Source of the DNA: an uncultured Nitrospiraceae bacterium
GTDB taxonomy: Bacteria > Nitrospirota > Thermodesulfovibrionia > Thermodesulfovibrionales > Dissulfurispiraceae
DNA length: 64,000 nt
Assembly (NCBI GenBank): GCA_963705105.1
Contig: CAVPIW010000006.1
Location: 960,001-1,024,000, forward strand
Direction of reading: 5' to 3'
The translations under genes were made by a program, and so were the position numbers. Shown in pieces: positions 11,156 to 56,360 of this stretch; position 1 is the first letter of the stretch, and each line of letters opens with the position of its first letter. The notes beneath the pieces are model-generated. The model saw only the letters and a list, made by a program, of their open reading frames with translations, made no database searches and had not been told where the DNA came from.

Positions 11156-12439
<1,284 letters not shown>

Positions 12440-12645: not shown

Positions 12646-12651
12646 ATAAAC

Positions 12652-20802: not shown

Positions 20803-21047
20803 TATTGGTGTCCAAAATAACGTGACACGAGGATTGGGCATGCCTTCTTCGCAAAATAAACTACCTCTCCTCATGTGTATCCCTCTGTTATGAAAACTTT
20901 TGCCTGCTCTGGTACACTGCGCGGCTCCCGCTTAGGCTGGCGCCTTCGACTCCCGCCGCCGTTCACGTTACCCGTGAATTTTGCTACAGAAACCACACCC
21001 AATCCTCGCTTTCAAGGTCTGTCTGTAAGATATTTTGGACAGGGGTG
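20803..21047. mobile_element. MITE family D, 245 bp, 9-bp TSD; carries the empty family-A target site
   Basis: TIR TGTCCAAAATA/TATTTTGGACA; AATCTGGGT duplicated at 20794-20802 and 21048-21056; inverted homolog at 53491-53951. Confidence 0.85.
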
Positions 21048-21078
21048 AATCTGGGTACGACGTTTCATGAAGGTACAA

Positions 21079-24209: not shown

Positions 24210-24575
24210 CTTGATGAATGCATAAGCCCTGCGGAAAGGCGGGGCGAAGACGCCGCGAAACAATGACAGCAGACATTAGGCAACAGACAGGCACCGGAGG
24301 ACAAACGCACGACGGGAAGGCTGATGTGGTGAAAAGCCTTTCCTCTAAGATACCCTATTCATCCCCGGACCACCCTTGCCGTGTCCATTGATACCGAATG
24401 CCCGTCAGGCAACAGGCGCTGAACACCTTGAGATGTCTCATCATCGCATTGGAAAGGCTTTGATCCATATCTGCCTTCCCGGAGACAGCGGTAGTGACAC
24501 CGACAGTGACCCTGTCACTCACACTGTCACTGTTTTTCAGAGCGCTTGTCCCACCGTTTCATGCACCTGATGCAG
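24210..24575 (+). mobile_element. Composite MITE, family A subfamily 3, second copy
   Basis: GGAAAGGCGGGGCGAAG end, core 24310-24485 homologous to 15309-15487, hexamer tract and TTCAGAGCGCTT; boundaries approximate. Confidence 0.7.
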
Positions 24576-39440: not shown

Positions 39441-39499
39441 CTTTCGACCTCCCTGTGGGGCCCTGTGTCCACGGGGAGCTCGACCGTGACCATGGTATA

Positions 39500-39711
39500 C
39501 CCTATAGTTGCATAGAAAGGCGGGGCGAAACGCCTCAAAGCCTTGCTGAAGGCGACGATGCGCCTCGCCATCTTCGTGTTTCAGGATTTCACTCTTTGTG
39601 TCATCGACCATTGGCGTATAGTTCATCTTTCGTTTTGATACAGGTGTCGCCGCAGCAAGGTTTTCGGCGCATACGCCCCGCCTTTCCCGGGCGTGCATTG
39701 CAACGATAAGG
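39500..39711 (-). mobile_element. MITE family A1, 212 bp
   Basis: TIR CCCTATAGTTGCA/TGCAACGATAAGG; TSD TATA (39496-99 and 39712-15). Confidence 0.88.
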
Positions 39712-39995
39712 TATACTCACCTTCCGCGCTGTCGACCGTGAGGCTCCCTTTGTGATCGGCGATGATGGTGTTGATGATACCGATCTATCCCCACTAAATT
39801 ATACGATAGGCAGATCACTTTGCAAAGCGCAGTCTATAACGCAGTTGCGTGAAAATGCGCAGCGGCTTCTTTCTATCATTTGTGTCATGATACACATCTG
39901 TACCGGGACAGAGCAGATCCTGTCACGCTGCGATCACAATTGCGCCGCCATGTTTTTGCTTCTAATTACAGCCGATTAAGGTCGTGCATTGCTCT

Positions 39996-40010
39996 TGGCA
40001 TGTTTCTTGG
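39996..40010 (+). promoter_or_regulatory. Possible sigma54 promoter (non-canonical -12)
   Basis: TGGCATGTTTCTTGG has GG-N10-GG instead of GC; dyad TGTGTCATGATACACA lies about 100 bp upstream. Confidence 0.35.
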
Positions 40011-40042
40011 TATAACTAAATCGATTAACAAAGGAGGAATGT

Positions 40043-40531
40043 ATGCATAAAACGCTGAATGCTCCCCTGATGATCAAAAATAGAGGCAGGAGAACGGAAG
40101 CGGCGAAGGGGACAACCTCCGCCTTGCCTCCATCGGATCAGCGGCACGCCCTCGTCGTCGATGACGACTCGATTATCACCAGGCTTCTGAGTATTTTCCT
40201 CGGGCAGATCATGCCTGTTGAAACGGCGGTAAACGGCAACGAAGCCCTGCAGAAGGTAAGACAGCAGCACTATGATGTGATTGTTTCCGATATCGAGATG
40301 CCGGTCTTGAACGGCATTGATTTCTATCGGCATGCCGCCCTGTCTGACCCGTCAATTCGTGATCGGTTCCTGTTCATTTCTGGGTCCGTCGAGGAGTACG
40401 AAGGCTTCTTCCGGGAAAACAACCTCCGTTACTATCCGAAACCTGTCTCGTTCGATGAGTTGAAAGACGCCGTGGTCGAGATCCTGCGGCAAAATGGGCG
40501 GCTCTCACCACATATGGAGGAATATGGCTGA
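40043..40531 (+). CDS. Single-domain response regulator
   Basis: ALVVDDD, IVSDIEMPVLNG, FISG and PKP; AGGAGG RBS. Confidence 0.88.
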   Translation: MHKTLNAPLMIKNRGRRTEAAKGTTSALPPSDQRHALVVDDDSIITRLLSIFLGQIMPVETAVNGNEALQKVRQQHYDVIVSDIEMPVLNGIDFYRHAALSDPSIRDRFLFISGSVEEYEGFFRENNLRYYPKPVSFDELKDAVVEILRQNGRLSPHMEEYG

Positions 40532-40730
40532 CGGTCAAGGCACATGACCGTTCCGGCCACAGGACAATGGGTTTCATCTTTTTACTGATCATACTGGCAG
40601 CGTGCCTGATGATTGTCTTCTACTCCGATCCCGAGCGTAGAAGCGAAGAGTCGGTCTTCACCTTCTACGTCCGGTCCTGGCGGGAGAGCGGGAGCCACGC
40701 CCCGGGGCCATCCCAAAGAACAGTGGCTCT

Positions 40731-41723
40731 CTAACGCCTCCATCCTCTCCCTCCTCCTCCGGAGGAGCCCCTGCCGCCCCCGCGCGCCGGCGGTCCCGAG
40801 GTCCTGCCGCCGCCTGAAGGGGGGGCGCTCATCCGACCGCCTGAAGATGGGCCGGAGGTCCTGCCCCGTGAAGGCGGGCTAAAGGACCTGCCATCCCCCG
40901 GCATCCCTCGATGACGGCCGGGATTGAAGACCCTTTCGGGCGTCCTCGGAATGCCCGGCGAAATGAAGCCCCCGGGTACGGGGCGCCCCGATCCCCTTAA
41001 AGGTCCTTCCGTGAAATCTCTGCACGGGGTCGACCCTGAAAACCCTGTGGGTCCTGAAGTGGTTGAAGTGATTCGTGATGAAGAAGGGGCGATTCTTCAC
41101 ATGGACGGTTTTGTGGAAGTCATGGAGGATGAAGAATCCCGAAAACCAGAGGTGGCCCCACCAGAACGGGTAGGGAACCCAGGAGTAGAGGTAGTAGTAA
41201 TCCGGCGGTGGAGTGTAATAGGTTACGACCGGGGGCCCTGGTTGTAGTAATAGTTGCAGATTGTCCCGGGACAGGGATAATCGGGTGTGCTTGGCGCTGT
41301 TCCCCCATACCCTTCTCCTGCGGCAGCAGGTCTGACCGACAGAGATGCATCCTCAAGGACCCTCCTGAAGGCCCTCAAGGCGTCGTCCCTTGTCATCGCA
41401 ATAGTCCCGGCATCCGCCGCTGCGATGACGCTCTCCTGCAGCTCCCCGGCGATGTCGGGAGTGACGGGGTAGTCGGCGATCCAGCCGTTCCGGGGTGAGA
41501 TGCCCGCCCTGCCGAGGGCGGTTTCCGCCTCGACCTCGTCGGTTGTCGAGGCAAGCCCCAGCGCTTCAGCCAGGCTGACAGCGAGAGTGCCTTCACGGAC
41601 GAGAGGCTGCTCGACCGGGGGTGAGGCCGTCGACGGCTGCATTGACTGCGCTTCGATCACGGCGGGCAGCGTGAGCGCGAATGCGCAAAGCAGCGCCATC
41701 CCAATACAAAGTGACTTTCTCAT
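40731..41723 (-). pseudogene. Secreted protein with aromatic/Pro-rich middle and Gly/Arg-rich tail, interrupted by two homopolymer frameshifts
   Basis: Signal peptide from ATG 41723; frame changes at the G5 run near 41231 and the C5 run near 40970; tail ends GRGWRR*; total length 993 bp. Confidence 0.65.
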
Positions 41724-41767
41724 GATGGGCCTCCTCAAAGCTCAAAGCCTTCAGCGGAACTTCCCTC

Positions 41768-42154
41768 TTATTAACCCGGCAATTAACCAGATGAACTGCA
41801 CTACGCTTTGTCATTTCCGGCTTGTCCGGAATCCTTCCCTATTTTCAGAAGGATTCCCGACGCGCGGAGCCTGTCCCGGCTTGACCGGGGCTTGCGGCAA
41901 TGACAGGATTACCGGTAATTAACTCTATAGTTGCACAGAAAGGCGGGGCGAAGCGCCTCAAAGCCTTGCTGAAGGCGACGATACGCCTCGTCAGGTTTGT
42001 CTTTCAGGACTCCACTCTTTGTGTGATCGGCCATTGGCTTGAACGGTTGTCTTCTGTGAGGGTTATGGTGTCGCCGCATCAAGGTTTTCGGCGCATACGC
42101 CCCGCCTTTCCCGGGAGTGTATTGCAACGATATGGTTAATTGCCGGGTTAATAA
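41768..42154. mobile_element. MITE family E (19-bp TIR, palindromic GTCATT..AATGAC core) interrupted by an A1 element
   Basis: Perfect inverted repeat TTATTAACCCGGCAATTAA/TTAATTGCCGGGTTAATAA; inverted homolog at 55977-56360. Confidence 0.82.
41923..42135 (-). mobile_element. MITE family A1, nested in family E
   Basis: TSD TTAA (41919-22 and 42136-39). Confidence 0.88.
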
Positions 42155-42229
42155 TCAAAATATAGCATCAGTTTTCTTCTACAGAACCGACACCTCTCTG
42201 TCACCGACACTGTCATCGCGGCACATCGC

Positions 42230-42931
42230 TCATGATTCTGCAAATTCACGAAAACGCGTCGCCAGTTCGGGTCCTTTGGCTTCCTCTTCGTGTTTGAAAA
42301 AAACGAAGACCTTCTCCCATTTCTGTGCGCCGATTCTTTCCAGCCACTGCTTCAGATCGGCATCGCTGTAATCGGAACGGCGCAGGCGCAGGTACCCCCA
42401 CGGCGCAGTCGGGATGATCTCGCCCGACGGATGCTCATCCGCATCGGCGATACACAGGCACGATCCCCTTTCACGAAGGAGGTTCAGAATCTCATCGTCG
42501 GTGCGGGATACACTGCGAAACTCGAATGCGCAGTCCCTGCCGGCGGGGATCAGGCCGAGAAAATCCTTCATCAGAGGCGGGCTCGCGCGAAAGCTCTTGG
42601 GAAACTGGAAGAGGACCGGCCCCAGCCTGGCGTCAAGAACGGAGAGAGTTCTGAAGAAATATGCCGCCTCATCATAGACATTGCGCAACTGCTTCAGATG
42701 CGTTATGACCCGGGGCGCCTTGAGCGCGAAAACAAAATCCCCGGGAACCTGCTCCGCCCACGAAATGAGCACCCGCTCCCCGGGCATGCGATAAAAGGTA
42801 GTGTTGATCTCTACAGTGTTGAACCGACCTGAATAGAAACGAAGCATGTCCCCCGGAGGGATCTTCTCCGGGTAGAAGGTCCCCTTCCATTCCCGGTATG
42901 CATACCCGCTTGTGCCGACGCGAATCTCCAT
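42230..42931 (-). CDS. DUF72 family protein
   Basis: VGTSG, FNTVEINTTFY, LGPVLFQFP, YLRL and FFKHE. Confidence 0.92.
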   Translation of the reverse strand: MEIRVGTSGYAYREWKGTFYPEKIPPGDMLRFYSGRFNTVEINTTFYRMPGERVLISWAEQVPGDFVFALKAPRVITHLKQLRNVYDEAAYFFRTLSVLDARLGPVLFQFPKSFRASPPLMKDFLGLIPAGRDCAFEFRSVSRTDDEILNLLRERGSCLCIADADEHPSGEIIPTAPWGYLRLRRSDYSDADLKQWLERIGAQKWEKVFVFFKHEEEAKGPELATRFREFAES

Positions 42932-42938
42932 AAATGAA

Positions 42939-43354
42939 CCTTATTGCTGCAATGCGCCCCCGGGAAAGGCGGGTGTCTGCGCCGAAAACCTTGATGCGGC
43001 GACACCTTAACCGTCACAGAAGGCTGTGTTTTACACCAATGATCGAAGAAATGAGCCTTTTTGCCGACACTCGCACTGTCACTGACACTCACACTTTATT
43101 AGAGTGCTCCGTCCCGCCTTTCCAGGCAACTACACCTTATCGTTGCAATACACGCCCGCGAAATGCGGGGCGTATGCGGCGAAAACCTTGCTGCGGCGAC
43201 ACCTGTATCAAAACGAAGGACAGCTTATACGCCTATGATCGATGACACAAAGAATGGATTCCGGAAACACAAACCTGACGAGGAGTATCGTCGCCTTCAG
43301 CAAGGATTTGAGGCGTTTCGCCCCGCATTTTCCATGCAACTACAGGGTACAGGG
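42939..43354 (+). mobile_element. MITE family A2, interrupted in its right TIR by an A1 element
   Basis: Starts CCTTATTGCTGCAAT; right end GGCAACTACA[insert]TACAGGG; flanks TGAA/TGAT. Confidence 0.78.
43135..43347 (+). mobile_element. MITE family A1, nested in A2
   Basis: TSD TACA (43131-34 and 43348-51). Confidence 0.88.
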
Positions 43355-43360
43355 TGATCG

Positions 43361-43633
43361 CTACCAGTAGAGCACTTTCATATGCTGGGCGTTTACCGTG
43401 CCCATCTTTCCGAGGTTCTTCCCTCTCCTGCCTTCTATTTTTCTGATCCAGTTCCTGATATCCTCGGCAAGCTCTGGTTCACACACCTCCGCGTACCGTT
43501 TCAGCGCCTCCAGTGCAGCAGGGTCTCTCTCGGGACTGAGGACGAAATAGGGTTCATCGTTTGCGAAGTTGACCGATTCCGCCGTTCTGCCCGTTTCGAG
43601 ATTGATCACCTTGTACCTGGGAGCGAGTTTCAT
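43361..43633 (-). CDS. Small hypothetical protein (90 aa)
   Basis: AGGAGG RBS, clean ORF, YFVLSPERDPAALEALKRYA motif. Confidence 0.75.
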   Translation of the reverse strand: MKLAPRYKVINLETGRTAESVNFANDEPYFVLSPERDPAALEALKRYAEVCEPELAEDIRNWIRKIEGRRGKNLGKMGTVNAQHMKVLYW

Positions 43634-43698
43634 CGTGACCTCCTGTGCATTTTACTGTCAGACGCCGCCGTGTCCTGACACATGCGGTCCCTGAATCA

Positions 43699-43855
43699 GA
43701 GTCTGTCCATAAAGTCACCTTCATCTGTCATTCCCGCAAGAGAAGCGCGTCGGGAATCCTTTTGAAAGAACGATTCCGGACCGATCCCCGGCTGTGCGAG
43801 GGCAAGAGCCGGAACGACAAACAAACCGCAACTTCGTGAGTTTATAAACGGACTC
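43699..43855. mobile_element. MITE-like element with a family-E-type palindromic core but different TIRs
   Basis: GAGTCTGTCCATAAA/TTTATAAACGGACTC inverted ends; core GTCATTCCCGC...GCGCGTCGGGAATCC...GATTCCGG...CCGGAACGAC. Confidence 0.7.
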
Positions 43856-43869
43856 AAATTATCAGGGTA

Positions 43870-43884
43870 GCGATAACCGTGCCA
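43870..43884 (-). promoter_or_regulatory. Sigma54 -24/-12 promoter
   Basis: Minus strand TGGCACGGTTATCGC (GG-N10-GC), just downstream of a sigma54 activator gene and pointing at the gene starting at 43633. Confidence 0.7.
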
Positions 43885-44080
43885 TTGTGAGGTCGATCGT
43901 ATCACGCCTTGCAAGACATTGGAAATCATCGATTGTTTGCAACAATGTCCCGTCGGTGCAAAATATACTCATGTCGCGTGAAACACATGCAGGGAACACA
44001 TCTGTATCATGGACGGTCCTGAACGAGGGGAACAGTGAGATGCCCGGGGCGAACCGAGGGGGCCCCGCGCTATCCCCGCG

Positions 44081-45799
44081 TTACGAACGCTTCGGGAATG
44101 TACTGTCGGTCTCGATGTCGTATTCTTTGATCTTCCGGTACAGCGTGCTGCGGCTCACTGCGAGCAGGCGGGCAGCGCGGGCTTTGTTCCAGCCGGTCTT
44201 CTCAAGGGCGCTGACAATCATCTCCGTGAGATTGTCCGGCGCCGCAGCGGCCACCTCCGGCGCGGCCCCGGTGAAACCCTTCAGCTCCTGGGGAAGATCC
44301 TCGAGGGTGAGAAGAGCACCGCGGCTCAGAAGGACCCCGTGTTCGATTGCATGCTCAAGCTCCCGCACATTGCCGGGCCACTCATAGGCGGAGAACAGCC
44401 CCATGACGTCGTCCGACACCCCGAGAACCTGCTTGTTCAGGCGTTCGTTCAGCTTCGCAATAAGATGATCGACCAGAAGCGGGATGTCCTCGCGCCGTTC
44501 CCGCAGCGGCGGAACCTTCAATTCCACCACCTTCAGCCGGTAATAGAGATCTTCCCGAAAGGCGCCTTCCCTGACCTTCCCGATGAGCTCACGGTTTGTT
44601 GCCGCCATCACCCGCACATCCACGGTGATGGGCGAGGTGCTCCCCACCCGTTCGAACTCACGTTCCTGGAGGACCCGAAGGAGCCTGATCTGCACCTGCT
44701 GCGAGATGTCCCCGATCTCATCGAGCAGGATCGAGCCGCCGTCGGCTATCTCGAATCTCCCGGCCTTGCTGCTGATGGCGCCGGTGAAGGCCCCTTTCAC
44801 ATGGCCGAAAAGCTCGCTCTCGAGGAGGTTCTCGTTCAGGGCCGAGCAGTTCACCTTCACGAAGGGCTTGTCTCTCCGGGACCCGCACAGGTGAATCGCC
44901 TCGGCGACCAGTTCCTTTCCCGTTCCGGTCTCGCCGGTGATGAGGACCGTCGTCGGCGTGTCGGCCAGGGCCTCGATGAGGGAGTAAATGCGCTGCATCG
45001 GCTGGCTCTGGCCGATGATGCCGTGAAAGCTTCTCCTTTTCCCGAGGTCGCGCTCCAGCGTGTCGAGCCTGGTTTCATCACGGACGACGACGATGCCGCC
45101 GTATACTTTCCCCGACCCGTCCCTGAGAGGAGAGACGGTCACCGCCACCGAACGTTCACTTCCGCCGGGGTGGAAGCAGGAGAGCCTCTTGACGGAGACG
45201 GGCTTCTCGGTGCGCATCGCGTCCCCGAGGGCATGCATACAGTTGCCTTTGCAGCGCGTGCGAAGGGAAGGGAACGCCTTCCCGACCACGTCGGGGCTGA
45301 AACCGCAGATGTCCCTGGCCGCATCATTGATGTCGATGACCGCCAGGTCCTTGTCAACCAGGATGATGCCCTCTGCGATGCTCCGGAACAGACCCTCCAG
45401 GTTCGCTCGGTACCGCTCCTTTTCTTCCACCAGCGCCTTGTGCATGAGGGCCTGTCGGGTCACCCGCAGGAGCGATTCCTGTCCCACCGGCTTGGAGATG
45501 TAGTCGAAAGCGCCGAAACGGACCGCTTCCGCCGCCGTTTCAAGGCTCGGATACCCGGTGATCAGCACGACAGGGCAGGAAGGATTTTTTTGCTTGATCT
45601 CCCGCAGCAGGTCGATGCCGCTCCGCTCTTCAAGGATGATGTCAAGGAACACCAGATCATACTGCCTCTCCTGGAATCGCGCCCATGCTTCTTCACAGTC
45701 TTTCGCCGTCCAGACACCATACCCCTCGTCTGACAGAAAGCTCTCGAAGGTCACCCTGATGCCCTTTTCGTCATCGATGACAAGAATGGGTTCCTTCAT
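44081..45799 (-). CDS. Sigma54-dependent enhancer-binding response regulator (REC-PAS-AAA-Fis HTH)
   Basis: GETGTGKE, GAFTGA, LLDEIGD, WPGNVREL and RSTLYRK. Confidence 0.95.
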   Translation of the reverse strand: MKEPILVIDDEKGIRVTFESFLSDEGYGVWTAKDCEEAWARFQERQYDLVFLDIILEERSGIDLLREIKQKNPSCPVVLITGYPSLETAAEAVRFGAFDYISKPVGQESLLRVTRQALMHKALVEEKERYRANLEGLFRSIAEGIILVDKDLAVIDINDAARDICGFSPDVVGKAFPSLRTRCKGNCMHALGDAMRTEKPVSVKRLSCFHPGGSERSVAVTVSPLRDGSGKVYGGIVVVRDETRLDTLERDLGKRRSFHGIIGQSQPMQRIYSLIEALADTPTTVLITGETGTGKELVAEAIHLCGSRRDKPFVKVNCSALNENLLESELFGHVKGAFTGAISSKAGRFEIADGGSILLDEIGDISQQVQIRLLRVLQEREFERVGSTSPITVDVRVMAATNRELIGKVREGAFREDLYYRLKVVELKVPPLRERREDIPLLVDHLIAKLNERLNKQVLGVSDDVMGLFSAYEWPGNVRELEHAIEHGVLLSRGALLTLEDLPQELKGFTGAAPEVAAAAPDNLTEMIVSALEKTGWNKARAARLLAVSRSTLYRKIKEYDIETDSTFPKRS

Positions 45800-48700
45800 G
45801 GAGCCTCCTCCGGCGCTTCAGCGGGGAGGTCGATCATCACCGTGGTGTATTCACCCTCAACGCTTTCGAGGGTCAGCCGTCCGCCATGATCGGCCACGAT
45901 ACCGTGACTGATGCTCAGTCCCAGCCCCGTTCCCTCGCTCGGGGGTTTGGTGGTAAAGAAGGGAGAAATCACCTTGTGTTGTATGTTCTTCGGGATGCCG
46001 CTACCGTGGTCGCACACCTCGATGCGGACGTGCGGCTTGCCTTCAACAGTGCAGCTTTCCCCCCTGATGTCCAGTGTCTTGTCCTGGTGCGGGCCGTGAT
46101 ATTTCTTGTTGAGCGCGTAACGGGCATTGCTGATAAGGTTCAGAAAGACCTGCTGGATCTGCTGCTGGTTCGCCCGTATCGGCGGGAGGTCCTGAGGCAT
46201 TATCACCCTGAGCTTGATGCCGTCCCGTCTCAGTTGAGCATTGGTGAGGACAAAGGTCGCTTCCAGGATATTTTGGAGGGCGACGGGATGTTTGACGTCA
46301 CTCCTGTCCCGCGCAAAGCCGAGCAGGCCTCTCACGATACCGGCAATCCTCCCGCCTTCGTTGACGATCTCTTCTGCGAATTCGTGCTCCCGCGAGGGCG
46401 GATCCGCCCTGTTCGCCAGAATCTGGGCGTAGTTGATGATGGAGTTGATGGGGTTGTTGATCTCATGGGCGACTCCGGCGGCAAGTTCCCCGAGGGAGGC
46501 GAGGCGCGCCGATCGGACGGCTTCCTCATGGAGTCTCAATTCCCGGGTGATGTCCCGGGCATCGAGGATGACGTTCTTCACCGTCCCCGACTCGTCTTTG
46601 ACGGGGATCGCCATCACATCCCAGATGGTGCTGCCTGGTATTTCCAGGCGGGCCGTTATTCGCTGTCCACTTTGAAAACAGATCGGCGCGGGACAGTCGT
46701 CGCGATTGACTCCCAGTCCCGCCCAAAAGCTTTCGCTGGTCTGTCCGACAAGGGCTTCGGGCGTGAGGTCAGCTCGTGCGGAAGCTGCCTTGTTCACCCA
46801 CAGGATCTTCAGGTCCGACGAAAGCAGAACGAGCATATCGGAAAGGGCATCGAGAAGGGCGTTGAGTTGCTGAGAGACCCTGCGATACCGCGCCTCGCTC
46901 TCCTCGATCATGGACCTGTTTCTCATGCGCTCCAAAAAGTCCCCGATCAATTCTGCGATCGTGCCGATGAGTGCGTCTTCTTCCTTCATGAAAGGACCGG
47001 CATCGATCGCAGGCCGCTCTGTGCAATAGACAACGGAGAGCGAACCCTGGACAGCGCCCTGGATGCGTATCGGTCTCTGCAGCTTCCACGGCGTGTCGCG
47101 GTAGTTGACCGTCTTGAACTCAAGACCGCTCAGGGTGACGCAGGCGCCGGTCGTCTCCGGGAACTGCCATCCCGAAGGAATCACGTTGACGACTTCATAG
47201 AGAGCAGACGCCATAGGCACTCCCTCCCCGCTCAGCAGGCGGTGCACCGTATTAAGACAGTTCAGCTCCTTGAGCCGCTCATTGAGATCATGGGTCTTCT
47301 TCTCAAGATCGCGGTAAGCCCGCCGAAGCTCTTCAGTCCGCTGCCTGATCCTGCATTCGAGCTCTTCGTTCGCCTCTTGCAATGCCTCCCGAGCCTTGCG
47401 CAGGTTCTCCTCGCTCTCGCGCAGGGCCACCTCCGCCTGCTTGCGCTCGGTGATGTCCTGGGTGATGCCGAAGCCACCTATCAGCGTGTCTTCCTCATCG
47501 AATTCAAGGTAGGCCTTCTCCCGCACCCATTTGACCTGTGCGTCCACCACGATGCGGTGTTCGATGTCGTAGGGCTCGCCGCGCAGGGCTGCATTCCACA
47601 TCATGTCCACGCACTGCCGGTCGTCGGGATGAATTGTCGCCAGGAACGATTCGTAGGTTAACGGTGTCCCCTTGGGCACGCCGAAGATACGATAATTCTC
47701 ATCGGACCATGTCAGGATGTTGCGGAGCACGTCCAGACGCCAACTGCCGATCTGCCCGACCGCCTGGGCGCGGTCCAGGTCTTCCCGGCTCTGGCGCAGG
47801 GCCTCCTCGGCCTGTCTGCGGGCGGTGACATCGAGTCCGTATATACGGACAAACCGCCCGTCCGGGAAATACTGCAGAGACTGCTGGAAGGTGCGTTCCC
47901 TCACGGTCACATCGCGCTGCGCGCTCCCGGTCAGTCCGTCCCGGAACGGCTGGGCCAAAGCCGTCCAATGCATGAACCACGGATGTGCCAATCCCTGTAT
48001 TTCCAGGTCCGGCAAAAGTCGACGCGTCGCTGGATTGGAGTACCTGATCGCGCCGTCCAGGCTCACCTCCATGACAGGATTCGGATTTCGTTCGGGGAAG
48101 GACGCAAGATACGCCAACCTCTCCTCCGCCTGCTTGAGGCGGCTGATATCAAGGTTGATGCCGGCCCAGCAGATGATCCGGCCCTGCTCGTCATGCACCG
48201 GTACGCCGCGTGCGAGGACCGGATGCCAGTCGCCGTCGACGCCGCGGAAACGATGTTCTATATCCCACGTCCCGCCCGTGCGGACGCACTCCTTCCAGGC
48301 TGCTATGGTCTGTTCGGCATCGTCCGGGTGCAGCACATCGCCCCAGCCGAAGTCTGAGCATTGTTGCTGCGTGATGCCCACCAGCCTGAGGAAGCTCTCG
48401 CTGGCGTATATGTTTCGACCGTCGGGGGCACAGATCCAGATGCCATAGTCGATCGATTCTCCAATGGCGCGGTAAAGCCCTTCGCTTCGCCGCAGGGCCT
48501 CCTCGCCGCGTTTCTGCTCTGTGATGTCGTAGTTGATCCCGTCGAAGCGGACAGGTGTTCCATCGGCGCCGTACGTCGCCTGGCCGGCTGAGCGGACCCA
48601 TCGAACTTCGCCGGTGACGGGATTGACGACGCGATGGTCGATCTCATACAACGAGCGCTCCCTGACCGCCTTCTCGACCGCCAGTCGTGTCGGCTCGCGA

Positions 48701-50943
48701 TCGTCGGGATGCAGCCTGCTCCAGAACAGATCGACGGTGGGCTCGGTCCCGGCCGGAACACAGAACAGCTGTTTTGTCTTTTCGTCCCAGTTGAGGCTGC
48801 CAAGCGGCATTTTGTTAAGCCATGTCCCGACACCCGTTATCCCCAGCACCCAGGCAAGGCGTTCACGGCTTTGGCGGAGTTCTTCCTCAACCCGCTTGCG
48901 CTCGGTGATGTCATGGGCCACATGAACGGAGCCGATCATCTGCCCCTTATCGTCGTACATCGGTGTCGTGCTGACCAGAAAATCGCCGCCGAGACGCTCC
49001 TCGCGCACTTCTTCTATATGTTCACGACCGTCCTGCAATGTTCGGCACTGAGGGCAGAAGGCAGGCGGCACGGATGTCCCGTGCACGACTTCATGGCACG
49101 GCAGCCCGATGCACTCCGCAGGGCTGCGCCCCAAACGACGTGCCATCGCAGCATTCACCCGCCGGACCCGATGGCGGTTGTCCATGATCGCGATCAGATC
49201 CGGCACGCTGTCAAAGGTTCTCTCCCATTCCTGTTTGGCCCGGACTATCCTTTCCCCGGCGGCGAACCTGGACAGGGAGATGGCCAGATAGTCAGCCAGA
49301 CTCTCCCACAGTGATAGGCCTTCAGGACTGAAACGCCCCTTTCTCCTGTCGTTCAACTGGAGCAGGCCCAGCCGCTCCTCTCCCGCACGGAGGCCGATCA
49401 GCGCAACCGACTCGTAGCCTTCCCCGTTGCACCTGTTTCTCGTGCGCGCCTGCCTGTCGGCGTCTGTGGTTGATGTCAGCAGCTCCGTCGTGCTGTTGGT
49501 CCAGAAGCTTCCCTTTTCCGTAAAGAAAGGCTTTGAAGGATCGAAACGCCCACAGATAACGTTGTCGCACATACATTCAAGGACCGGGTTGCCCGCGCCG
49601 TCGAGGATGAGCCGTCCCTCCCCGTCACGGGAGCAAAGACTATTTTCCAGAAGAACAAACTCCTTCGGGAACCCTCGCGTCTCGTAATACGGATAATCAT
49701 GCTCCCGCCTGAGTCTTATGCCCACTGCCTCGCACCCGGACTTCCGCTGAAAGAAGTCAGTCGCAGCGTGAATCAGGTCATCGGTCCCCTTGCTTTCATT
49801 GGCAAGGTGAAGAAATCCGGCTACCGTCTCACGCTCCTCCTCCGCCCGCCTGCGAACCGTGATATCCTGAAACACTGTGGCGAATTTCCCCTTGCCCGGC
49901 GAAAAGACAGATATGGCGAAATACCTTTTCATCGGGGGGAAGTACGCCTCGAAAGCGAATGACTCACCTGTGGAAGCAACCTTTGCGTATATATCGATAT
50001 ACGGGGCCTCCCCTGTGCCGTAAAGCTCGGAAGCCCTCTTGCCGACGGCAACATTTCGGACAAGGCCCGTAATTTTCTCGTACGCCGGATTCACATCTGC
50101 GACCACATAGTCAACGGCCCTTCCATCCTCATACACGATCTCGTGCATGGCAAGGCCTTCGCTCATTGACGCATACAGGCTCTTCAGCCGCTCCCCGTTC
50201 CTTCGCAGCTCATCTTCCACCTCCTTACGCCGGGCGATCTCACGCCGGAGCTCTTCACTTGTCTCCTCGGCGAGCCGCCTGGCCCTGATGGCGTCTTCCA
50301 AGGCTTCAAGAACGGCCGCGCGTGATTCACGCAGACCTGCCTCGGAGGCCTCAAGCCTGTCACGGGAGACCCTGAGCTCTTCGTTCGCCGCGGCAAGTTC
50401 TTCGTTCGCTTCCCGGAGCCTCTCCATCACCCTGAGGACCCTCAGGTCCGTCACAATCACGCAGGCCGCCTCCATGTCGTCTGTCCTGAGGAGGCTTGCC
50501 GATATGCTCACAGGGACTGCAGGGTTTTCATTCCCCTTTGCCTTCAGGAAGGTCTCAAGAGCGCGGCTCTCCGGACCGACTTCCGCGATGAGGGCTGAAA
50601 CGGAGTGACGCAGGTCTTCAGCCACGAAATCAAGGAATGACATCCCGAGCACCTCTTCGCGGGGTGCGCTCACAAGTTCGGCGAATCGGGGGTTGCAGAA
50701 GAGGATAAGCCCTTCGAACGTCATGGTGACCGCGCCTTCATTCATCGACTCGAAGAAGACCCGGTACGGATGGTCGGCGCCCTTCAAAGTATATATCCGG
50801 TCACCCGCGGGAGACGAGCAGACGAGCGCATCCACTTCTCCGCTCCTGATGGCGCGAAGGGCATCTTCCGCCTCCTCAAGCCGCGACCGGAGCTCCTGAA
50901 TCTCCGGAAGCAGATCCATCCTGGGCTTGCCTTTCCCCGTCAT
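45796..50943 (-). CDS. Multi-PAS/GAF sensor histidine kinase (1715 aa)
   Basis: Several PAS/PAC repeats (HPDD..., DITERK); GVAHEINNP, QVFLNL, PFFTTK and GTGLGL. Confidence 0.95.
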   Translation of the reverse strand: MTGKGKPRMDLLPEIQELRSRLEEAEDALRAIRSGEVDALVCSSPAGDRIYTLKGADHPYRVFFESMNEGAVTMTFEGLILFCNPRFAELVSAPREEVLGMSFLDFVAEDLRHSVSALIAEVGPESRALETFLKAKGNENPAVPVSISASLLRTDDMEAACVIVTDLRVLRVMERLREANEELAAANEELRVSRDRLEASEAGLRESRAAVLEALEDAIRARRLAEETSEELRREIARRKEVEDELRRNGERLKSLYASMSEGLAMHEIVYEDGRAVDYVVADVNPAYEKITGLVRNVAVGKRASELYGTGEAPYIDIYAKVASTGESFAFEAYFPPMKRYFAISVFSPGKGKFATVFQDITVRRRAEEERETVAGFLHLANESKGTDDLIHAATDFFQRKSGCEAVGIRLRREHDYPYYETRGFPKEFVLLENSLCSRDGEGRLILDGAGNPVLECMCDNVICGRFDPSKPFFTEKGSFWTNSTTELLTSTTDADRQARTRNRCNGEGYESVALIGLRAGEERLGLLQLNDRRKGRFSPEGLSLWESLADYLAISLSRFAAGERIVRAKQEWERTFDSVPDLIAIMDNRHRVRRVNAAMARRLGRSPAECIGLPCHEVVHGTSVPPAFCPQCRTLQDGREHIEEVREERLGGDFLVSTTPMYDDKGQMIGSVHVAHDITERKRVEEELRQSRERLAWVLGITGVGTWLNKMPLGSLNWDEKTKQLFCVPAGTEPTVDLFWSRLHPDDREPTRLAVEKAVRERSLYEIDHRVVNPVTGEVRWVRSAGQATYGADGTPVRFDGINYDITEQKRGEEALRRSEGLYRAIGESIDYGIWICAPDGRNIYASESFLRLVGITQQQCSDFGWGDVLHPDDAEQTIAAWKECVRTGGTWDIEHRFRGVDGDWHPVLARGVPVHDEQGRIICWAGINLDISRLKQAEERLAYLASFPERNPNPVMEVSLDGAIRYSNPATRRLLPDLEIQGLAHPWFMHWTALAQPFRDGLTGSAQRDVTVRERTFQQSLQYFPDGRFVRIYGLDVTARRQAEEALRQSREDLDRAQAVGQIGSWRLDVLRNILTWSDENYRIFGVPKGTPLTYESFLATIHPDDRQCVDMMWNAALRGEPYDIEHRIVVDAQVKWVREKAYLEFDEEDTLIGGFGITQDITERKQAEVALRESEENLRKAREALQEANEELECRIRQRTEELRRAYRDLEKKTHDLNERLKELNCLNTVHRLLSGEGVPMASALYEVVNVIPSGWQFPETTGACVTLSGLEFKTVNYRDTPWKLQRPIRIQGAVQGSLSVVYCTERPAIDAGPFMKEEDALIGTIAELIGDFLERMRNRSMIEESEARYRRVSQQLNALLDALSDMLVLLSSDLKILWVNKAASARADLTPEALVGQTSESFWAGLGVNRDDCPAPICFQSGQRITARLEIPGSTIWDVMAIPVKDESGTVKNVILDARDITRELRLHEEAVRSARLASLGELAAGVAHEINNPINSIINYAQILANRADPPSREHEFAEEIVNEGGRIAGIVRGLLGFARDRSDVKHPVALQNILEATFVLTNAQLRRDGIKLRVIMPQDLPPIRANQQQIQQVFLNLISNARYALNKKYHGPHQDKTLDIRGESCTVEGKPHVRIEVCDHGSGIPKNIQHKVISPFFTTKPPSEGTGLGLSISHGIVADHGGRLTLESVEGEYTTVMIDLPAEAPEEAP

Positions 50944-51278
50944 TTCTTCAACCTCAGATCGAACCCGAGGAGGATGCGCTCCGTGTCGGACATGTCGCCG
51001 ATGAACTTGCGGAGCGGAAGAGGCAGTTTCTTTATGAGGGTCGGCGCGGCGATGATCTGCTCACCTTTTGCGAGCACGGGGTTTTGGTATATATCGACGA
51101 TCTCCAGATCGAAACGGCCGTTCAGGTGTTCTTCGCATATCTTCCGGATGTTCATGATCGCTTTGGAAGACCGGGGGGTCATTCCGGTAATGTACAGCTT
51201 CAGCACATATGTCTGACCCGAGGCCTCTTTTGCCGCCTTCTCCAGTTCCTCTCCCTGGTGTCTTTTCCCTGCCGCCAT
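50940..51278 (-). CDS. kaiB: KaiB family protein
   Basis: YVLKLYITG and QIIAAPTLIKKLPLPLRKFIGDMS. Confidence 0.95.
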   Translation of the reverse strand: MAAGKRHQGEELEKAAKEASGQTYVLKLYITGMTPRSSKAIMNIRKICEEHLNGRFDLEIVDIYQNPVLAKGEQIIAAPTLIKKLPLPLRKFIGDMSDTERILLGFDLRLKK

Positions 51279-51281
51279 TTC

Positions 51282-51632
51282 TCATGCTCCCTGTTTGACG
51301 GGCACAAGGTTGAGCCCGACAAGAACGCGCTCTGTGTTCGACAGGTCTCCTATGATCTTTCTGACAGGGACGGGCAGCTTTCTCACCAGCGTCGGGAGAG
51401 CGACAATCTGGTCGCCTTTGGCGAGCTGCGGGTTCTCGATCAGGTCGATGATCTCGATCCTGTATTTGCCTTTGAGGTGCTCTTCACAGATCTTCTTCAG
51501 ATTCGAAAAGGCTGCGATAGACTTCGGCGTCTGTCCTGCCACGTAAAGGCGCAGCTCCCAAAGATCCTTCCGCCCCTGAGTCTTCCCGGCCTTCCGGTCG
51601 CCTGCCGTCGCTTCACTTCTCTGCGCTTTCAT
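51282..51632 (-). CDS. kaiB: KaiB family protein
   Basis: [12 protein letters not shown] and [21 protein letters not shown]. Confidence 0.95.
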
Positions 51633-53418
51633 TGTCCGCCTTCCTCATTTGGGCCAGCATCTTTCTGTCTCCGGCAAGCTGCTGCCGCCTCATCCTGTCT
51701 TCCAGGAGTGCAAGCCGCAACTCTTCCTCCGCATCGGCAAACTCGGCCCGCAGGGCCGCGGTCCGGGCCTCAAGCGTCTTTCTCTTCGTCTCGACGTCAC
51801 GCTTTTTCCTTTCGAGTTCCTGCCTGCGGATGCGCTCATCCGTTTTCTCCTTCGCCTCCTCTGTCAGACGGGCCGACCCCATCAGTACCCTGCCTGCCCC
51901 TGTATAGACATCCAGAAGGTCGATGCCCTTGTCGGAGATGACGAGCTCCCGTATCTGGTGCGAATGGGCCATGCCGCGTGATTTGAGCACATAGAGCCCC
52001 CTCGTCCGCTCTCCGGCCTGCTCCAGCTCCCTCACCACGATCCATGTGTCCATGAGAGACGAGACGCCCACATCGGTCTGCTCGAGGTTCGTCCCTCCGA
52101 TGGTGAGGTTCGTGCAGAGGCAGGTGATGCCCTGATCCTTCAGCATATCGATGAGTCTCATGATGACCAGCTTCACATCGGACGCGCTCGCCACGAAGGT
52201 GAAACTGCTGATGGGGTCTATGATCACCACCGAGGGCTCGAAGTCCCGCATCAGCCTGTGGATCGAGGCGAGAAACATCTCGAGACCGTGCGCGGTGGGG
52301 CGGACGGCGTTGAAACGCAGGGTTCCTTTTTTGACGTACGGCCCGAGGTCGATGCCGATGGACCTGCCGTTCCGTATGATCTGGCTTTCAGACTCCTCCG
52401 AGGCGACGTACAGGCAGCGTTCTCCGTTCCGGCAGGTTCTGTGCGCAAAGCACATGGCCATGCCCGTTTTTCCCGTGCCCGCGGTGCCCGTGATGAGGAT
52501 GGTGCTCCCCCTGTAATACCCTCCGTTGAGCATCCTGTCCAGTCTCGGGATGCCGGTCCTGATGCGCTCGGTCGACGCCTTGTGCGTCAGACCCAGAGAA
52601 GTGACCGGCACGACCGAAAAACCGCTGTCGTCAATGAGGAAGGGGTATTCGTTCGTTCCATGGACGGAGCCCCGGTACTTGACTATCCGCATCCTCCTGG
52701 TCGATATCTGGTCCGTCACCCGGTGATCGAGGAGGATCACGCAATCGGCCACATACTCTTCCAGCCCGTGGCGGGTGAGTGTGCCGTCCCCTCTCTCTCC
52801 CGTGATGAGCGCCGTCACTCCTCTGTCCTTGAGCCACCTGAAGAGACGCCGCAACTCCGCCCGAAGGATGTTCTCATTCGGGAGACCCGAGAAGAGCGAC
52901 TCTATCGTGTCGAGGACGATTCTCCTGGCGCCCACCGAGTTGATGGCGTTTTCAAGCCTTATAAAGAGCCCCTCAAGGTCGTACTCCCCTGTTTCCTCGA
53001 TCTCGCTCCGCTCGATGTAGACGTAGTCAAGAGACAGCTTCTTCCGCTTCACGAGGGCTTCGAGGTCAAAGCCCAGTGAAGAGACGTTCTGCGCAAGTTC
53101 CCTCGTGTTCTCTTCGAAACAGACAAAGACGCCCGGCTCGTCGTACTGTTGCGCGCCACGGACAAGAAACTCCATCGCAAGAAGCGTCTTGCCGCACCCG
53201 GCGCTGCCGCAGACGAGCGTCGGTCTGCCCTTGGGAAATCCGCCCCCTGTGATCTCGTCGAGCCCGCGGATGCCCGTCGGGCATTTCTCAAGGACTGCTT
53301 TCACCATCCCCTTTGCCCTGGGAGCGGCAATGCCTGCGTTACCCGCCTTCGATGCACGATTCTTGGGGGCCTTGGGATGAGCAGTGCTTCCTTCAGGACC
53401 CGTCTTGTCTTTCTTCAT
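51613..53418 (-). CDS. kaiC: Double-domain KaiC with C-terminal coiled coil
   Basis: GSAGCGKT and GTAGTGKT Walker A motifs, [17 protein letters not shown] and a charged helical tail. Confidence 0.95.
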
Positions 53419-53490
53419 TCTTCTATCACCTTTCTATCTGCACACTGGTAAGGTTATTGAACCGAGTCGTCACGATTTTATTGTATCACA

Positions 53491-53951
53491 CACCCCTGTC
53501 CATAATGTCTTGCAGCAAAACCTTGAAAACGAGGATAGGGTGTGGTTTCTGAAGCAAAATTCACGGGTAAGGTGAACGGCGGCGGGAGTCGAAGGCGCAC
53601 GCCGCAGCGGGAGCCGCACAGTGTACCGGAGAAGGCAAAGGTTTTCATGACAAAGGTATACACATGAGGAGAGGTAGTTTACCTTATCGTTGCAATACAC
53701 TCCCGGGAAAGGCGGGGCGTATGCGCCGAAAACCTTGCTGCGGCGACACCTGTATCAAAACGAAAGATGAACTATACGCGAATGGTCGATGACACAAAGA
53801 GTGAAATCCTGAAACACGAAGATGACGAGGAGCATCGTCGCCTTCAGCAAGGCTTTGAGGCGTTTCGCCCCGCATTTCTATGCAACTACAGGGTTTATTT
53901 TGCGAAGAAAGCATGCCCTATCCTCGTGTCATGTTATTTTGGACACCAATG
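53491..53951. mobile_element. MITE family D interrupted by an A1 element
   Basis: Inverted homolog of 20803-21047; flanks TGTATCACA/TGTACCACA (8/9 match). Confidence 0.85.
53682..53893 (+). mobile_element. MITE family A1, nested in family D
   Basis: TSD TTTA (53678-81 and 53894-97); single-copy site in the D element at 20.8 kb. Confidence 0.92.
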
Positions 53952-54082
53952 TGTACCACAGATACTTCCGGGTCGCACCAAGCTGCCCCGTCAGCGACCT
54001 CAAGGGGATGGGTTCCCCTTTTTCGTACCTCCCCGAAAGATCTTCCCCCTGAAAAGCCGGCCCGGCAAAGAGAAAACCCCGG

Positions 54083-54403
54083 TTACTTCAGGAACGTGTT
54101 GCCCTGCATATCGACACAGACGTTGTCGACGTAGTCAAAGTCGTGATAACAGCCGATGCATCTCCCCCTGCAGTCGTAGTACATGGAATTGCACGCCGGA
54201 GCAGCCTCTGCGGCGTCAAACACCACGACCCTTCCGACAGAGAAGCTGGATCTCGCATCCTTGTAACAGGTGATGTTGATACCGTCGTCAGCGCACGCCG
54301 GCCCGGTGAAACAGGACACAGTGAGCACGATCCCCAAAAGAACGCCTGCCTTAAAAAGTATCGCAAAAAAAGGGTGTCTTTCTCGTCGTTTCACTCTTTT
54401 CAT
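54083..54403 (-). CDS. Small Cys-rich secreted protein
   Basis: Signal-like N-terminus; CNSMYYDCRGRCIGC; AGGAGG RBS. Confidence 0.75.
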   Translation of the reverse strand: MKRVKRRERHPFFAILFKAGVLLGIVLTVSCFTGPACADDGINITCYKDARSSFSVGRVVVFDAAEAAPACNSMYYDCRGRCIGCYHDFDYVDNVCVDMQGNTFLK

Positions 54404-54436
54404 GATTTCCTCCTGAAAGTGCCTATGTCAATCCTG

Positions 54437-54865
54437 TTACTCGGGGGGCTCCTTTTTCTCCTGCGCCTTTTCCCCGGGCCTCTCCGCCATTCTCTTGCAG
54501 GCCGCGGACAGTTCCTGCATATGCTCCCTTAAACATCTGATGATCCGGCCCTCTCCGGGCTTGACATCCTTGCAGTACTTTTCCATATCCCCGGAGCAGG
54601 CCTGCTGCGCTTCCGCCAGTTTCTTCTTCGACTCTTCGATCTTGCCCTTGCACGAAGCCGAAAGCTCCGTCTGGTGCTCGTTCAGGCAGCTGAGGATGCG
54701 ACCTCCTCCCGGCTTCACCTCCTTGCAGTATTTCGCAATTTCCTCCGCGCACGGGAGTTCCTGTTCCGCTGCATAGATCCTGCCCCCTGCACTCCCGCAA
54801 AGGACGACAAATGCAAGGGCAAACGTCTGCACGCCGATGACATGCCACACAATCCTTTTTTTCAT
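54437..54865 (-). CDS. Cysteine-rich repeat protein (GLG1/Cys_rich_FGFR-like repeats)
   Basis: Two repeats of C..E/D..KYCK.VKPG.GRI..CL.EH..ELS..CK. Confidence 0.85.
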   Translation of the reverse strand: MKKRIVWHVIGVQTFALAFVVLCGSAGGRIYAAEQELPCAEEIAKYCKEVKPGGGRILSCLNEHQTELSASCKGKIEESKKKLAEAQQACSGDMEKYCKDVKPGEGRIIRCLREHMQELSAACKRMAERPGEKAQEKKEPPE

Positions 54866-54998
54866 TCTTTCAGCCTCCTCAGGCAATTGACCTGCCTTCA
54901 TCCGAGTTTTTGGGCTTCGCTTCACAGCCGGGAGCCTCTCCACGTCAGCGGCAATATCGTTATTTCACTTTTTTATCCCGCCTGCAGGTTGCGTCATG

Positions 54999-55832
54999 TC
55001 ACTGTTTGACCAATTCGACCCGCCGATTCTTGGCCCTTCCGTCCTCCGTGTCGTTCGATGCGATGGGCGCAAGAGAGGCGACACCATACGGCTTCAATCG
55101 CGCGGCGGCTATTCCGTATTTGCCGGAGAGGACCCGAACAACCGCTTCGGCACGGTCCTTCGACAGCTTCATGTTCGAATCAAAGGAGCCGACGTTGTCC
55201 GTATGGCCGACGACATATATCTTCAGCGCGCCATCGTTCCTGAGGAGCTTCCCGATCTCCGAGACAGCGGCATCGGATTCGGGCTTTATCTCGGATTTTC
55301 CGGTGTCGAAGTATATGCCGTATATCGCAACGCGGCCGGTTGCATTGATATCCTTGCCCATCGCCTCGGCGTTCGCCACCACCTCCTGCTTCATGGTCTC
55401 TCTTTCCAGCATGGTAAGCCGGTACATGTTGTTGTAAGACCTGACTTCGACCCAGGTCTCTTTGCCCTCCTTTTGGAGTACGATTGTGGATGTTTTGTTG
55501 AAGTTGTCGTCGAAGATGACCTTTCCGCCGATCTTCTTGAGGGCATCCTGGATGTTCCGGCGGATTTTCAACTCTCCGGGCTCCGCAGCGCCCTTGTTCA
55601 GGCGGTATTCGATGTAATATTTGTGGCCCTCGACGCTGACCTGCTTTTTGTCGTGGTTGATAAATTTATGGCTGTCGAACTCGGTGTCCTTATAACCCGA
55701 TATGTGGAAGTCGGGCATCCTCGAAAGCAGTGGGTGATCCTTGCTTCCCATTATATCCTGTTCGGCCACAGAAAGACTGAAACTTGCCATCACGAAGAAC
55801 AGACCGAAAATTACCGTCATTGCATGCTTCAT
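54999..55832 (-). CDS. OmpA-family peptidoglycan-binding protein
   Basis: Signal peptide, DHPLLSRMP, IYFDTGKS, VGHTD and GRAKNRRVELV. Confidence 0.92.
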   Translation of the reverse strand: MKHAMTVIFGLFFVMASFSLSVAEQDIMGSKDHPLLSRMPDFHISGYKDTEFDSHKFINHDKKQVSVEGHKYYIEYRLNKGAAEPGELKIRRNIQDALKKIGGKVIFDDNFNKTSTIVLQKEGKETWVEVRSYNNMYRLTMLERETMKQEVVANAEAMGKDINATGRVAIYGIYFDTGKSEIKPESDAAVSEIGKLLRNDGALKIYVVGHTDNVGSFDSNMKLSKDRAEAVVRVLSGKYGIAAARLKPYGVASLAPIASNDTEDGRAKNRRVELVKQ

Positions 55833-55976
55833 TATTCCTCCTCGTATGAAATGTCGTATGCCGTCGTCACAGGACGTCGCCATGGCATCACTTTACCACA
55901 AGACGGGGTGATTCACAAAGGATGCAAACTCCCTTGAATCAAAGGACATCAATGGAAAAGCTCACAATTCTGCGCA

Positions 55977-56360
55977 TTATTACTCCGGTAAATGAAAACG
56001 TCTGATTGTGTCATTGCCGCAAGCCCGGTCAAGCCGGGACAGGCTCCGCGCGTCGGCAATACTTTTGAAAACAAAGAAGGTTTCCGGTCAAACCGGAATG
56101 ACAGAGCACAATACAGTTCATCTCTTTACCTTATCGTTGCAATACACGCCCGGGAAACGCGGGGCGTATGCGGCGAAAACCTTGCTGCGGCGACACCTGT
56201 ATCAAAACGAAAGACGGCTTATACGCCTATGATCGATGACACAAAGAATGGATTCCTGAAACACAAACCTGACGAGGAGTATCGTCGCCTTCAGCAAGGC
56301 TTTGAGGCGTTTCGCCCCGCATTTCTATGCAACTGCAAGGTTTAATTGCCGGGCTAATAA
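55977..56360. mobile_element. MITE family E interrupted by an A1 element
   Basis: Inverted homolog of 41768-42154; ends TTATTACTCCGG/CCGGGCTAATAA. Confidence 0.8.
56129..56340 (+). mobile_element. MITE family A1, nested in family E
   Basis: TSD TTTA (56125-28 and 56341-44). Confidence 0.9.

Follow-up and report, generated by a model that had tools for sequence, protein, structure and literature searches.

The 64-kb window, meaning the whole stretch of DNA analysed here, contains five full copies of a small repeat designated MITE family A, together with the small elements that host four of them. The copies and their hosts are as follows.

39500-39711, minus strand: complete family A MITE of 212 bp; exact 4-bp direct repeat TATA; not nested
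41768-42155, no strand assigned: family E host with ends TTATTAACCCGGCAATTAA and a CGTC-type palindrome doublet inside; about 170 bp without its insert
41923-42135, minus strand: complete family A MITE of 213 bp; TTAA duplicated; within family E, at the inner edge of its right terminal repeat
42939-43354, plus strand: host of type A2, a shorter form of family A; 199 bp without its insert, flanked by TGAA/TGAT
43135-43347, plus strand: complete family A MITE of 213 bp; TACA duplicated; within the A2 host, 3 bp from its right end
53491-53951, no strand assigned: family D host with ends CA...TG and a 9-bp duplication (one mismatch); 245 bp without its insert
53682-53893, plus strand: complete family A MITE of 212 bp; TTTA duplicated; within the family D host, at its position 188
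55977-56360, no strand assigned: family E host, in the orientation opposite to the host at 41768-42155
56129-56340, plus strand: complete family A MITE of 212 bp; TTTA duplicated; within family E, at the inner edge of its other terminal repeat

All five full copies described in the original prediction were recovered, each with its own exact 4-bp repeat (TATA, TTAA, TACA, TTTA, TTTA). The CC...GG ends that had been attributed to every copy are present in four, the copy at 41923 having the ends CT/CC rather than CC/CC. The four proposed nestings (one in family D, two at opposite ends of family E, and one in an A2 element) are borne out by multi-copy repeats that span four of the five empty sites, and paralogous copies of D and E lacking the insertion represent empty sites for the family A copies nested in them. 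Counting themselves, the family E copy at 41768-42155 has 15 near-full matches genome-wide and the family D host at 53491-53951 has 31; the ends of the latter are similar to those of an IS4-type element on contig C12. Both E insertions in the window (41923 and 56129) are on TWAA at the inner end of the E terminal repeat. The copy at 39500-39711 is located upstream of an ORF starting at 39440, the product of which presumably resembles a receiver-domain protein. A search for an orthologous empty site at the 53681 boundary returned contigs of three runs with many other flanks and no clean empty site among the matches listed. Eighteen of 20 holders share less than 0.2 of words, and they are uninformative on habitat or expression.

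Family A is a miniature transposon without genes (MITE), of which the genome has hundreds of copies. Fuzzy matching finds 909 termini genome-wide, which yield 294 paired elements, and BLAST with the copy at 53682-53893, the reference copy for searches, gives 139 full-length matches spread over 17 of the 19 contigs; DNA masked as family A comprises about 149 kb, or 3.5% of the assembly. The element is 212-213 bp long with terminal repeats of 13-14 bp, its ends across 142 copies being CCTTATCGTTGCA and CCYTNNAGTTGCAT, and is too short for a transposase gene; 95 of 207 copies have a length of 211-213 bp. Exact 4-bp duplications flank 143 of the 294 pairs, compared to 7 pairs for 3 bp and 5 for 5 bp, far above chance genome-wide, and their consensus is TWWA. 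Two candidates of 1225 and 2327 bp lying between A ends were rejected as autonomous elements, as they are actually separate MITEs flanking host genes. The hairpin proposed for the element is upheld by folding energies with z values of -3.7 (DNA) and -4.0 (RNA), none of 200 shuffles being equally stable. An Rfam search of the window gave no match, and in a covariation analysis, for which the cross-genome alignment was poor, the consensus fold retained only 13 pairs, two of them with repeated double changes.

In being short, non-coding, and intergenic, with TIRs, a target duplication, and a stable hairpin, family A resembles the bacterial type I MITEs Nezha, Chunjie, and Correia/NEMIS. Passages of PMC3542288 and PMC3184786 give definitions of this type; its ends are common to an autonomous element, as are those of family A with the IS1380 clade described below. 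Family A nevertheless differs from the known type I MITEs in sequence, in its high load (3.5%), and in that its partner IS is missing from the assembly.

A tree of 27 IS1380-like proteins from related genomes, calculated in FastTree after three of 30 rows shorter than 350 aa were left out, places eight of them on one branch (local support 100), and all four clade members scanned pass the NF033539 cut-off. The right ends agree with the MITE end at 10-12 of 13 positions in seven of the eight clade members, while none of the other 19 proteins exceeds 9; the left ends agree at 10-12 of 13 in five of the six loci reaching them, and the sixth locus agrees with the other MITE end, at 11 positions. 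The two asymmetric ends of the MITE thus match the left and right IS1380 ends separately. Four 1520-bp IS copies in genome G287, where an intact clade transposase is encoded at C1:45471-46862, have the exact duplications TTTA, TTAT, TTTA, and TTAA, while further clade copies have TTAA (in genome G039), AAAA (one), a duplication with one mismatch (two), or no matching duplication (one). Genome G039 contains a clade IS, with an intact transposase on contig C48, along with 351 matching termini (control, 0), and in a sample of 334 kb of its 2.6 Mb, 9 of 19 MITEs are 213-214 bp long, with an interior largely different from that of family A and one end equal to the G039 IS end at 14 of 14 positions. 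A cognate transposase in the same genome is present for the MITEs of G039; for family A, none is found in the assembly. The family A MITE and the clade IS have nothing in common beyond about 20 bp at the ends. Because shared DNA is limited to these ends and no IS1380 gene is found in the assembly, the pairing of MITE and IS rests on ends, duplication, and co-occurrence elsewhere. These features indicate that family A is likely moved in trans by the transposase of the end-sharing clade, in agreement with the IS1380-like mobilization suggested at the outset, for which the matching ends and the TWWA-type duplication now point to one clade in related genomes.

Members of the IS1380 family (NF033539, PF13701; IS1247, ISPme1, ISEcp1, ISSsu5) have terminal repeats beginning with CC and a short duplication that is AT-rich, as does family A, from which they differ in that family A lacks a transposase and has a 4-bp duplication, TWWA; for IS1247, repeats of 16/13 bp and a 5-bp duplication are given in Table 2 of PMC3281130. 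With an identity of only about 24-26% to IS1380 proteins from plasmids (best rows among 3379 plasmid records), the clade is not closely related to ISEcp1 or ISSsu5. Scans with the end sequence gave chance matches only in the genome collection (at least three loci) and, in metagenomes, 118 matches of which none extends into the element; viral contigs contain no relative of the transposase. In the largely open-access literature searched, neither an IS1380-derived MITE family nor family A is described. Family A constitutes an orphan MITE family, about 3.5% of the assembly, that can be linked to one specific IS1380 clade.

The original prediction had noted that no IS1380-like transposase is in the window, and none was found anywhere in the assembly either (19 contigs, 99.36% complete by markers): there is no PF13701 match and no clade-profile match at E ≤ 1, and the NF033539 profile gives only sub-threshold cross-matches to IS1634 and ISH3-like genes. 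The absence of IS1380, the long open transposase frames of IS1634, ISH3, IS4, and IS1182-like elements in this genome, and the many family A copies with near-identical neighbours would accord with mobilization by one of these resident transposases, with the IS1380-like ends reflecting old inheritance or coincidence. However, matching ends are absent from all DDE elements with visible flanks, IS1634 copies with both flanks visible make 5-6-bp duplications, and the asymmetry of the MITE ends fits the left and right IS1380 ends separately, making a resident mobilizer very unlikely. Under IS1380-clade mobilization, the partner IS would have been lost from the lineage or would be missing from the assembly.

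The nesting seen in the window had been taken to mean that the element mostly inserts into other MITEs, possibly by targeting hairpin or TIR DNA. Genome-wide, however, only 39 of 207 family A copies (19%) are inside another repeat and 168 are outside any recognizable repeat. The comparison with control sites that had been proposed as a check reveals no enrichment, 280 of 1409 and 345 of 1500 matched non-coding sites being in repeats (20-23%), which is the result that had been named in advance as refuting the prediction, so that hairpin or TIR targeting is not upheld as the main rule. A second method gives 39 of 206 sites in repeats versus 38.5-39.9 (global) or 35.6-38.1 (local) expected, and in gaps up to 800 bp 37 of 182 copies are nested versus 38.2 expected. 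Among copies at least 77% identical to the window type 24 of 86 are nested (28%), and among those closest to it 12 of 34 (35%). The nesting frequency corresponds to the share of repeats among non-coding target sites, about what chance gives, so that what looked like targeting of other elements is nothing unusual. Since repeats already make up a quarter of the non-coding DNA of this genome, nesting seen in one window alone can be misleading.

Two observations are in favour of an element that mainly targets other MITEs or their terminal repeats, like REP-targeting insertion sequences: the nesting of four of five copies in the window, for which the binomial p is 0.005 if taken alone, and the three insertions that fall at positions 188-189 of family D. 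Yet a run of four nested copies in five occurs somewhere in the genome in 37-46% of shuffles (three overlapping runs observed, p 0.09-0.12), no other of the 67 occupied 64-kb bins has four nested copies, and the D site is predicted from sequence preference alone, six insertions in family D being observed versus 6.2 expected after modelling of the flanking sequence preference. Together with the 168 copies outside repeats, these results leave such targeting extremely improbable. Nested copies are spread over at least five host types, with no single repeat class at a defined position dominant. Preferential re-insertion beside the element's own ends was also rejected (3 observed versus 4.4-8.8 expected). 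The REP-targeting elements IS1397, IS621, and IS1594 and the nested plant MITEs Castaway, Gaijin, and Ditto are likewise found inside small repeats; REP targeting by insertion sequences is described in a section of PMC3184786, and a passage of PMC5172404 gives MITE multimers in rice as more than 10%. Those are reported as real preferences, whereas family A is at or barely above the repeat share and self-insertion is not enriched. Had the element truly homed to other MITEs, it would have exemplified a 'safe-landing' strategy and a DDE transposase with a new rule of targeting, but the genome-wide test contradicts this.

Gene calls were made with a home-made caller on MITE-free sequence, 76-81% of which is coding. 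Only 3 of 206 insertion sites are in confident gene cores, versus 47% expected, and the 30 bp upstream of start codons hold fewer sites than expected (28 versus 45.5); both results support survival in safe havens, which had been offered as the alternative to targeting. An orientation bias of family A relative to genes was rejected (78 versus 64, p 0.28). Taken together, family A is most probably a MITE with 13-14-bp repeats and a 4-bp TWWA duplication, likely mobilized in trans by the IS1380 clade and nested about as often as the repeat share predicts. The transposase would bind both ends and excise the element, which would then insert with a 4-bp stagger at T-W-W-A sites having purine-rich 5' flanks. 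Copies landing within a gene or immediately before a start codon would be purged, and survivors would therefore accumulate in gaps where repeats already occupy about a quarter of the sequence; the sites at the inner edge of the TIR may simply be good matches to the target sequence. The roughly 200 insertion sites supply a target profile for the clade, namely TWWA with purine-rich 5' flanks.

A small excess of nesting is observed when sites are compared within the same gaps. For any repeat, 39 insertions are observed versus 29.9 (p 0.011) or 31-32 (p 0.03-0.06), and for non-A repeats 31 versus 22-24 (p 0.016-0.038), weakening to p 0.05-0.12 once the 80 bp upstream of starts are excluded; p values near 0.02 are weak because nine masks were tried under several nulls. 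Sites near the CGCAAAG repeat number 10 versus 1.2-2.1 globally and 4.8-7.4 locally (p 0.002-0.11), sites near non-A repeats number 60 of 207 versus 306 of 1409 controls (p 0.026), and each of the three insertions in family E is at the inner edge of a terminal repeat. A transposase with a real but weak (about 1.3-fold) preference for small structured repeats atop its TWWA preference, favouring DNA in or beside CGTC palindromes, CGCAAAG repeats, and other MITEs, would account for these figures. Nevertheless, the all-repeat excess is absent under global or fixed-window nulls, the remnants of family A itself are hit less than or as often as expected (7-8 versus 7.8-16.5), the excess shrinks without promoter-side DNA, and survival bias would give the same excess. 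A weak preference of this kind is thus unlikely, and the small within-gap excess can be explained by survival bias. A further proposal, likewise improbable, is that an undescribed IS1380 clade has produced separate bursts of MITEs in different genomes, all of almost constant length, and that its enzyme has a weak (about 1.3-fold) bias to small hairpin repeats. If so, the near-fixed MITE sizes would suggest that the transpososome of the clade prefers a certain distance from end to end, and the structural bias of the enzyme would appear as the residual within-gap excess.

The window, positions 960001-1024000 of contig C6, contains five full-length copies of the A element, a hairpin MITE, each with an exact 4-bp duplication. 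Four of them are nested: once the A copy and one of its two duplicates are deleted, an intact host of known type reappears. These features agree with the original prediction.

Full A copies in the window (all 212-213 bp, duplications exact)
39500-39711, TATA, not nested
41923-42135, TTAA, within family E host 41768-42155
43135-43347, TACA, within a copy of the shorter A2 type, 42939-43354
53682-53893, TTTA, within family D host 53491-53951
56129-56340, TTTA, within family E host 55977-56360

The un-nested copy is flanked by two TCGACCGTGA copies (39480-39740) upstream of an ORF starting at 39440, and this pair is possibly a split regulatory site. Further A-family variants occur in the window at 12431-12650, 15203-15604, 17762, and 24219-24570, some with CACTGA-type tandem cores.

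BLAST of one A copy against the genome finds 139 full-length matches among a total of 672, and a fuzzy search for ends genome-wide yields 909 termini forming 294 pairs. Duplications are recoverable genome-wide, being exactly 4 bp in 143 of the 294 pairs (7 for k = 3 and 5 for k = 5), and the target consensus is a palindromic T-W-W-A with mildly purine-rich 5' flanks. Duplications overlap a called stop codon in 17 of 203 cases genome-wide (8%, vs 3.6% of controls), an excess that a target sequence containing TAA, TGA or TAG would be expected to give. The element has a long hairpin fold (z of -3.7 as DNA and -4.0 as RNA) and no Rfam match. Masking assigns ∼149 kb (3.5%) of the assembly to the A family, whose copies show a length peak of 211-213 bp (95/207). 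The element is lineage-restricted: of 30 related genomes, 2 have weak relatives, and of 300 others, 1 has the strict end pattern.

Nesting was assessed for 207 pairs shorter than 700 bp whose duplications differ at no more than one position; 87 pairs were left out, 86 with worse duplications and one false 2.3-kb pair. Tests using MITE-free sequence omit one further pair (n = 206), and gap-based tests 20 more (n = 186). When empty sites, rebuilt without the A copy and one duplication, and 1500 duplication-matched non-coding control sites were compared with the genome by BLAST, 39/207 A sites fell inside a repeat vs 345/1500 controls, or 280/1409 for controls away from excised copies. Counting only non-family hosts gives 23/207 vs 165/1409 (p 0.91), and the outcome is the same under four threshold settings. 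A second method masked repeats in MITE-free non-coding DNA, which is 25% repeat; 39/206 sites are nested, compared with a global expectation of 38.5-39.9 and one of 35.6-38.1 from local windows. With gap length limited as a guard against missed genes, 23 are nested vs 25.8 expected (gaps ≤400 bp) and 37 vs 38.2 (≤800 bp). Because genome-wide nesting is at the control level, the prediction that the element mostly inserts into other MITEs is refuted on its own terms. Copies nearest the window's type nest somewhat more, still as a minority (24/86; 12/34 at ≥90% identity). Taken alone, the four of five nested in the window have a binomial p of 0.005, but the window is the most extreme of 67 occupied bins, and some 4-of-5 nested run turns up in 37-46% of shuffles.

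Conditioning the null on each copy's own gap leaves 39 nested vs 29.9 (p 0.011); adding target profiles gives 39 vs 31-32 (p 0.03-0.06), and 31 vs 22-24 (p 0.016-0.038) for non-family repeats. With 80 bp upstream of start codons excluded, p becomes 0.15-0.41 for all repeats and 0.05-0.12 for non-family repeats. The strongest residual association is with the CGCAAAG repeat (101 motif matches genome-wide), within 30 bp of which lie 10/206 insertions vs 1.2-2.1 globally and 4.8-7.4 locally; 9 insertions lie near CGTC palindromes, where the global expectation is about 3 but the local one 6-8. Given the nine masks and several nulls used, these excesses are weak. Family D is struck six times, three at positions 188-189, of which two may not be independent, and a 14-bp target profile predicts 6.2; family E is struck three times, always at the inner end of its terminal repeat, which itself contains TTAA.

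Confident gene cores hold 3/206 A sites vs 47% expected. Inside gaps, fewer sites than expected lie 30 bp or less from a start codon (28 vs 45.5), and more than expected lie that close to a gene end (62 vs 49.6, p 0.001). This distribution suggests that insertions in genes, and harmful ones generally, are purged, which would explain the small excess in repeats without targeting.

The IS families of the assembly, assigned by sequence likeness, are presumably IS256, IS3, ISL3, IS1634, ISH3, IS4, IS110, and IS1182-like, PF01609 matches being the part of this labelling that rests on profile search. No IS element with visible flanks in the assembly has A-type ends, and no IS1380 gene was found there, extending to the whole assembly the absence of such a transposase noted for the window. 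IS1380 elements begin with CC and generate 4-5-bp duplications. These features were compared with IS1380-like loci here and, for IS1247, with its table entry in PMC3281130. PF13701 matches occur in 105/301 genomes of the class, and eight of 30 IS1380-like loci examined have MITE-type ends, forming one branch of a 27-row tree (FastTree, local support 100). All four clade proteins scanned pass the IS1380 model NF033539; among the best matches listed from 3379 plasmid records, clade proteins are ∼25% identical to plasmid IS1380 proteins. The resemblance is specific to each end: the MITE end CCTTATCGTTGCA matches the IS right end at 10-12 of 13 positions in 7/8 clade members, vs at most 9 of 13 at 19 other IS1380-like loci, and the second MITE end resembles the IS left end, CCTTCCAGTTGCAT being identical in both. 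Related genome G287 carries four intact 1520-bp IS copies with exact duplications (TTTA, TTAT, TTTA, TTAA). Another, G039, has one clade IS plus 351 matching termini (control 0), and 334 kb sampled from it contains 213-214-bp MITEs with one end equal to that of its own IS over 14 bp. The clade is present in 12/317 genomes of the order (E ≤ 1e-40). The guess of IS1380-like mobilisation is thus borne out to the extent that the A element and one IS1380 clade have ends and a TWWA-type target in common. From these sequence likenesses we infer that the clade's DDE transposase would move the A element in trans, inserting it by a 4-bp stagger at TWWA; the partner IS has probably been lost or was left unassembled.

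The A element works like a type I bacterial MITE and shows its testable features, as given in PMC3542288, PMC3184786, and PMC10969869. The defining feature of repeat-targeting elements such as IS1397 or IS621 (PMC3184786) is not found in it. In plants, MITEs inside MITEs have long been known (PMC5172404), and ISEcp1 and ISPme1 are described in PMC9330008. A term look-up in PMC5381638 and PMC11602168 returned no mention of IS1380, and no description of the A family was found in the literature searched.

Family D, whose elements are ∼245 bp long with 9-10-bp duplications, counts 31 near-full copies (window copies 53491-53951 and 20804-21050); it has ends resembling those of a two-copy IS4-type element (contig C12, 149978-151251) and is likely, on this resemblance, an IS4-type MITE whose partner is present. 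A CGTC-type palindrome doublet forms the core of E (41768-42155, 55977-56360) and of a second TIR family (43701-43845). One contig of run X3 aligns either side of 43716-43846, not across, hinting that a related strain lacks the latter element. In G039 (loci L226-L245), 9/19 MITEs are 213-214 bp, their interiors aligning with those here at only ∼46%, and minimal forms of 49-91 bp also occur. Locus L161 of a third related genome (G258, C55:1003-2891) holds an IS1380 of another clade within an element with A-type ends, a TTAA duplication, and a CGTC palindrome. Reverse nesting also occurs, an IS1634 copy lying within an A-family element at C10:241471; across this region, the one around C6:934816, and C5:59229-60778, taken together, IS1634 copies lie within or adjoin A elements and a two-copy IS110-like element lies within a CGTC palindrome adjoining an A insertion.
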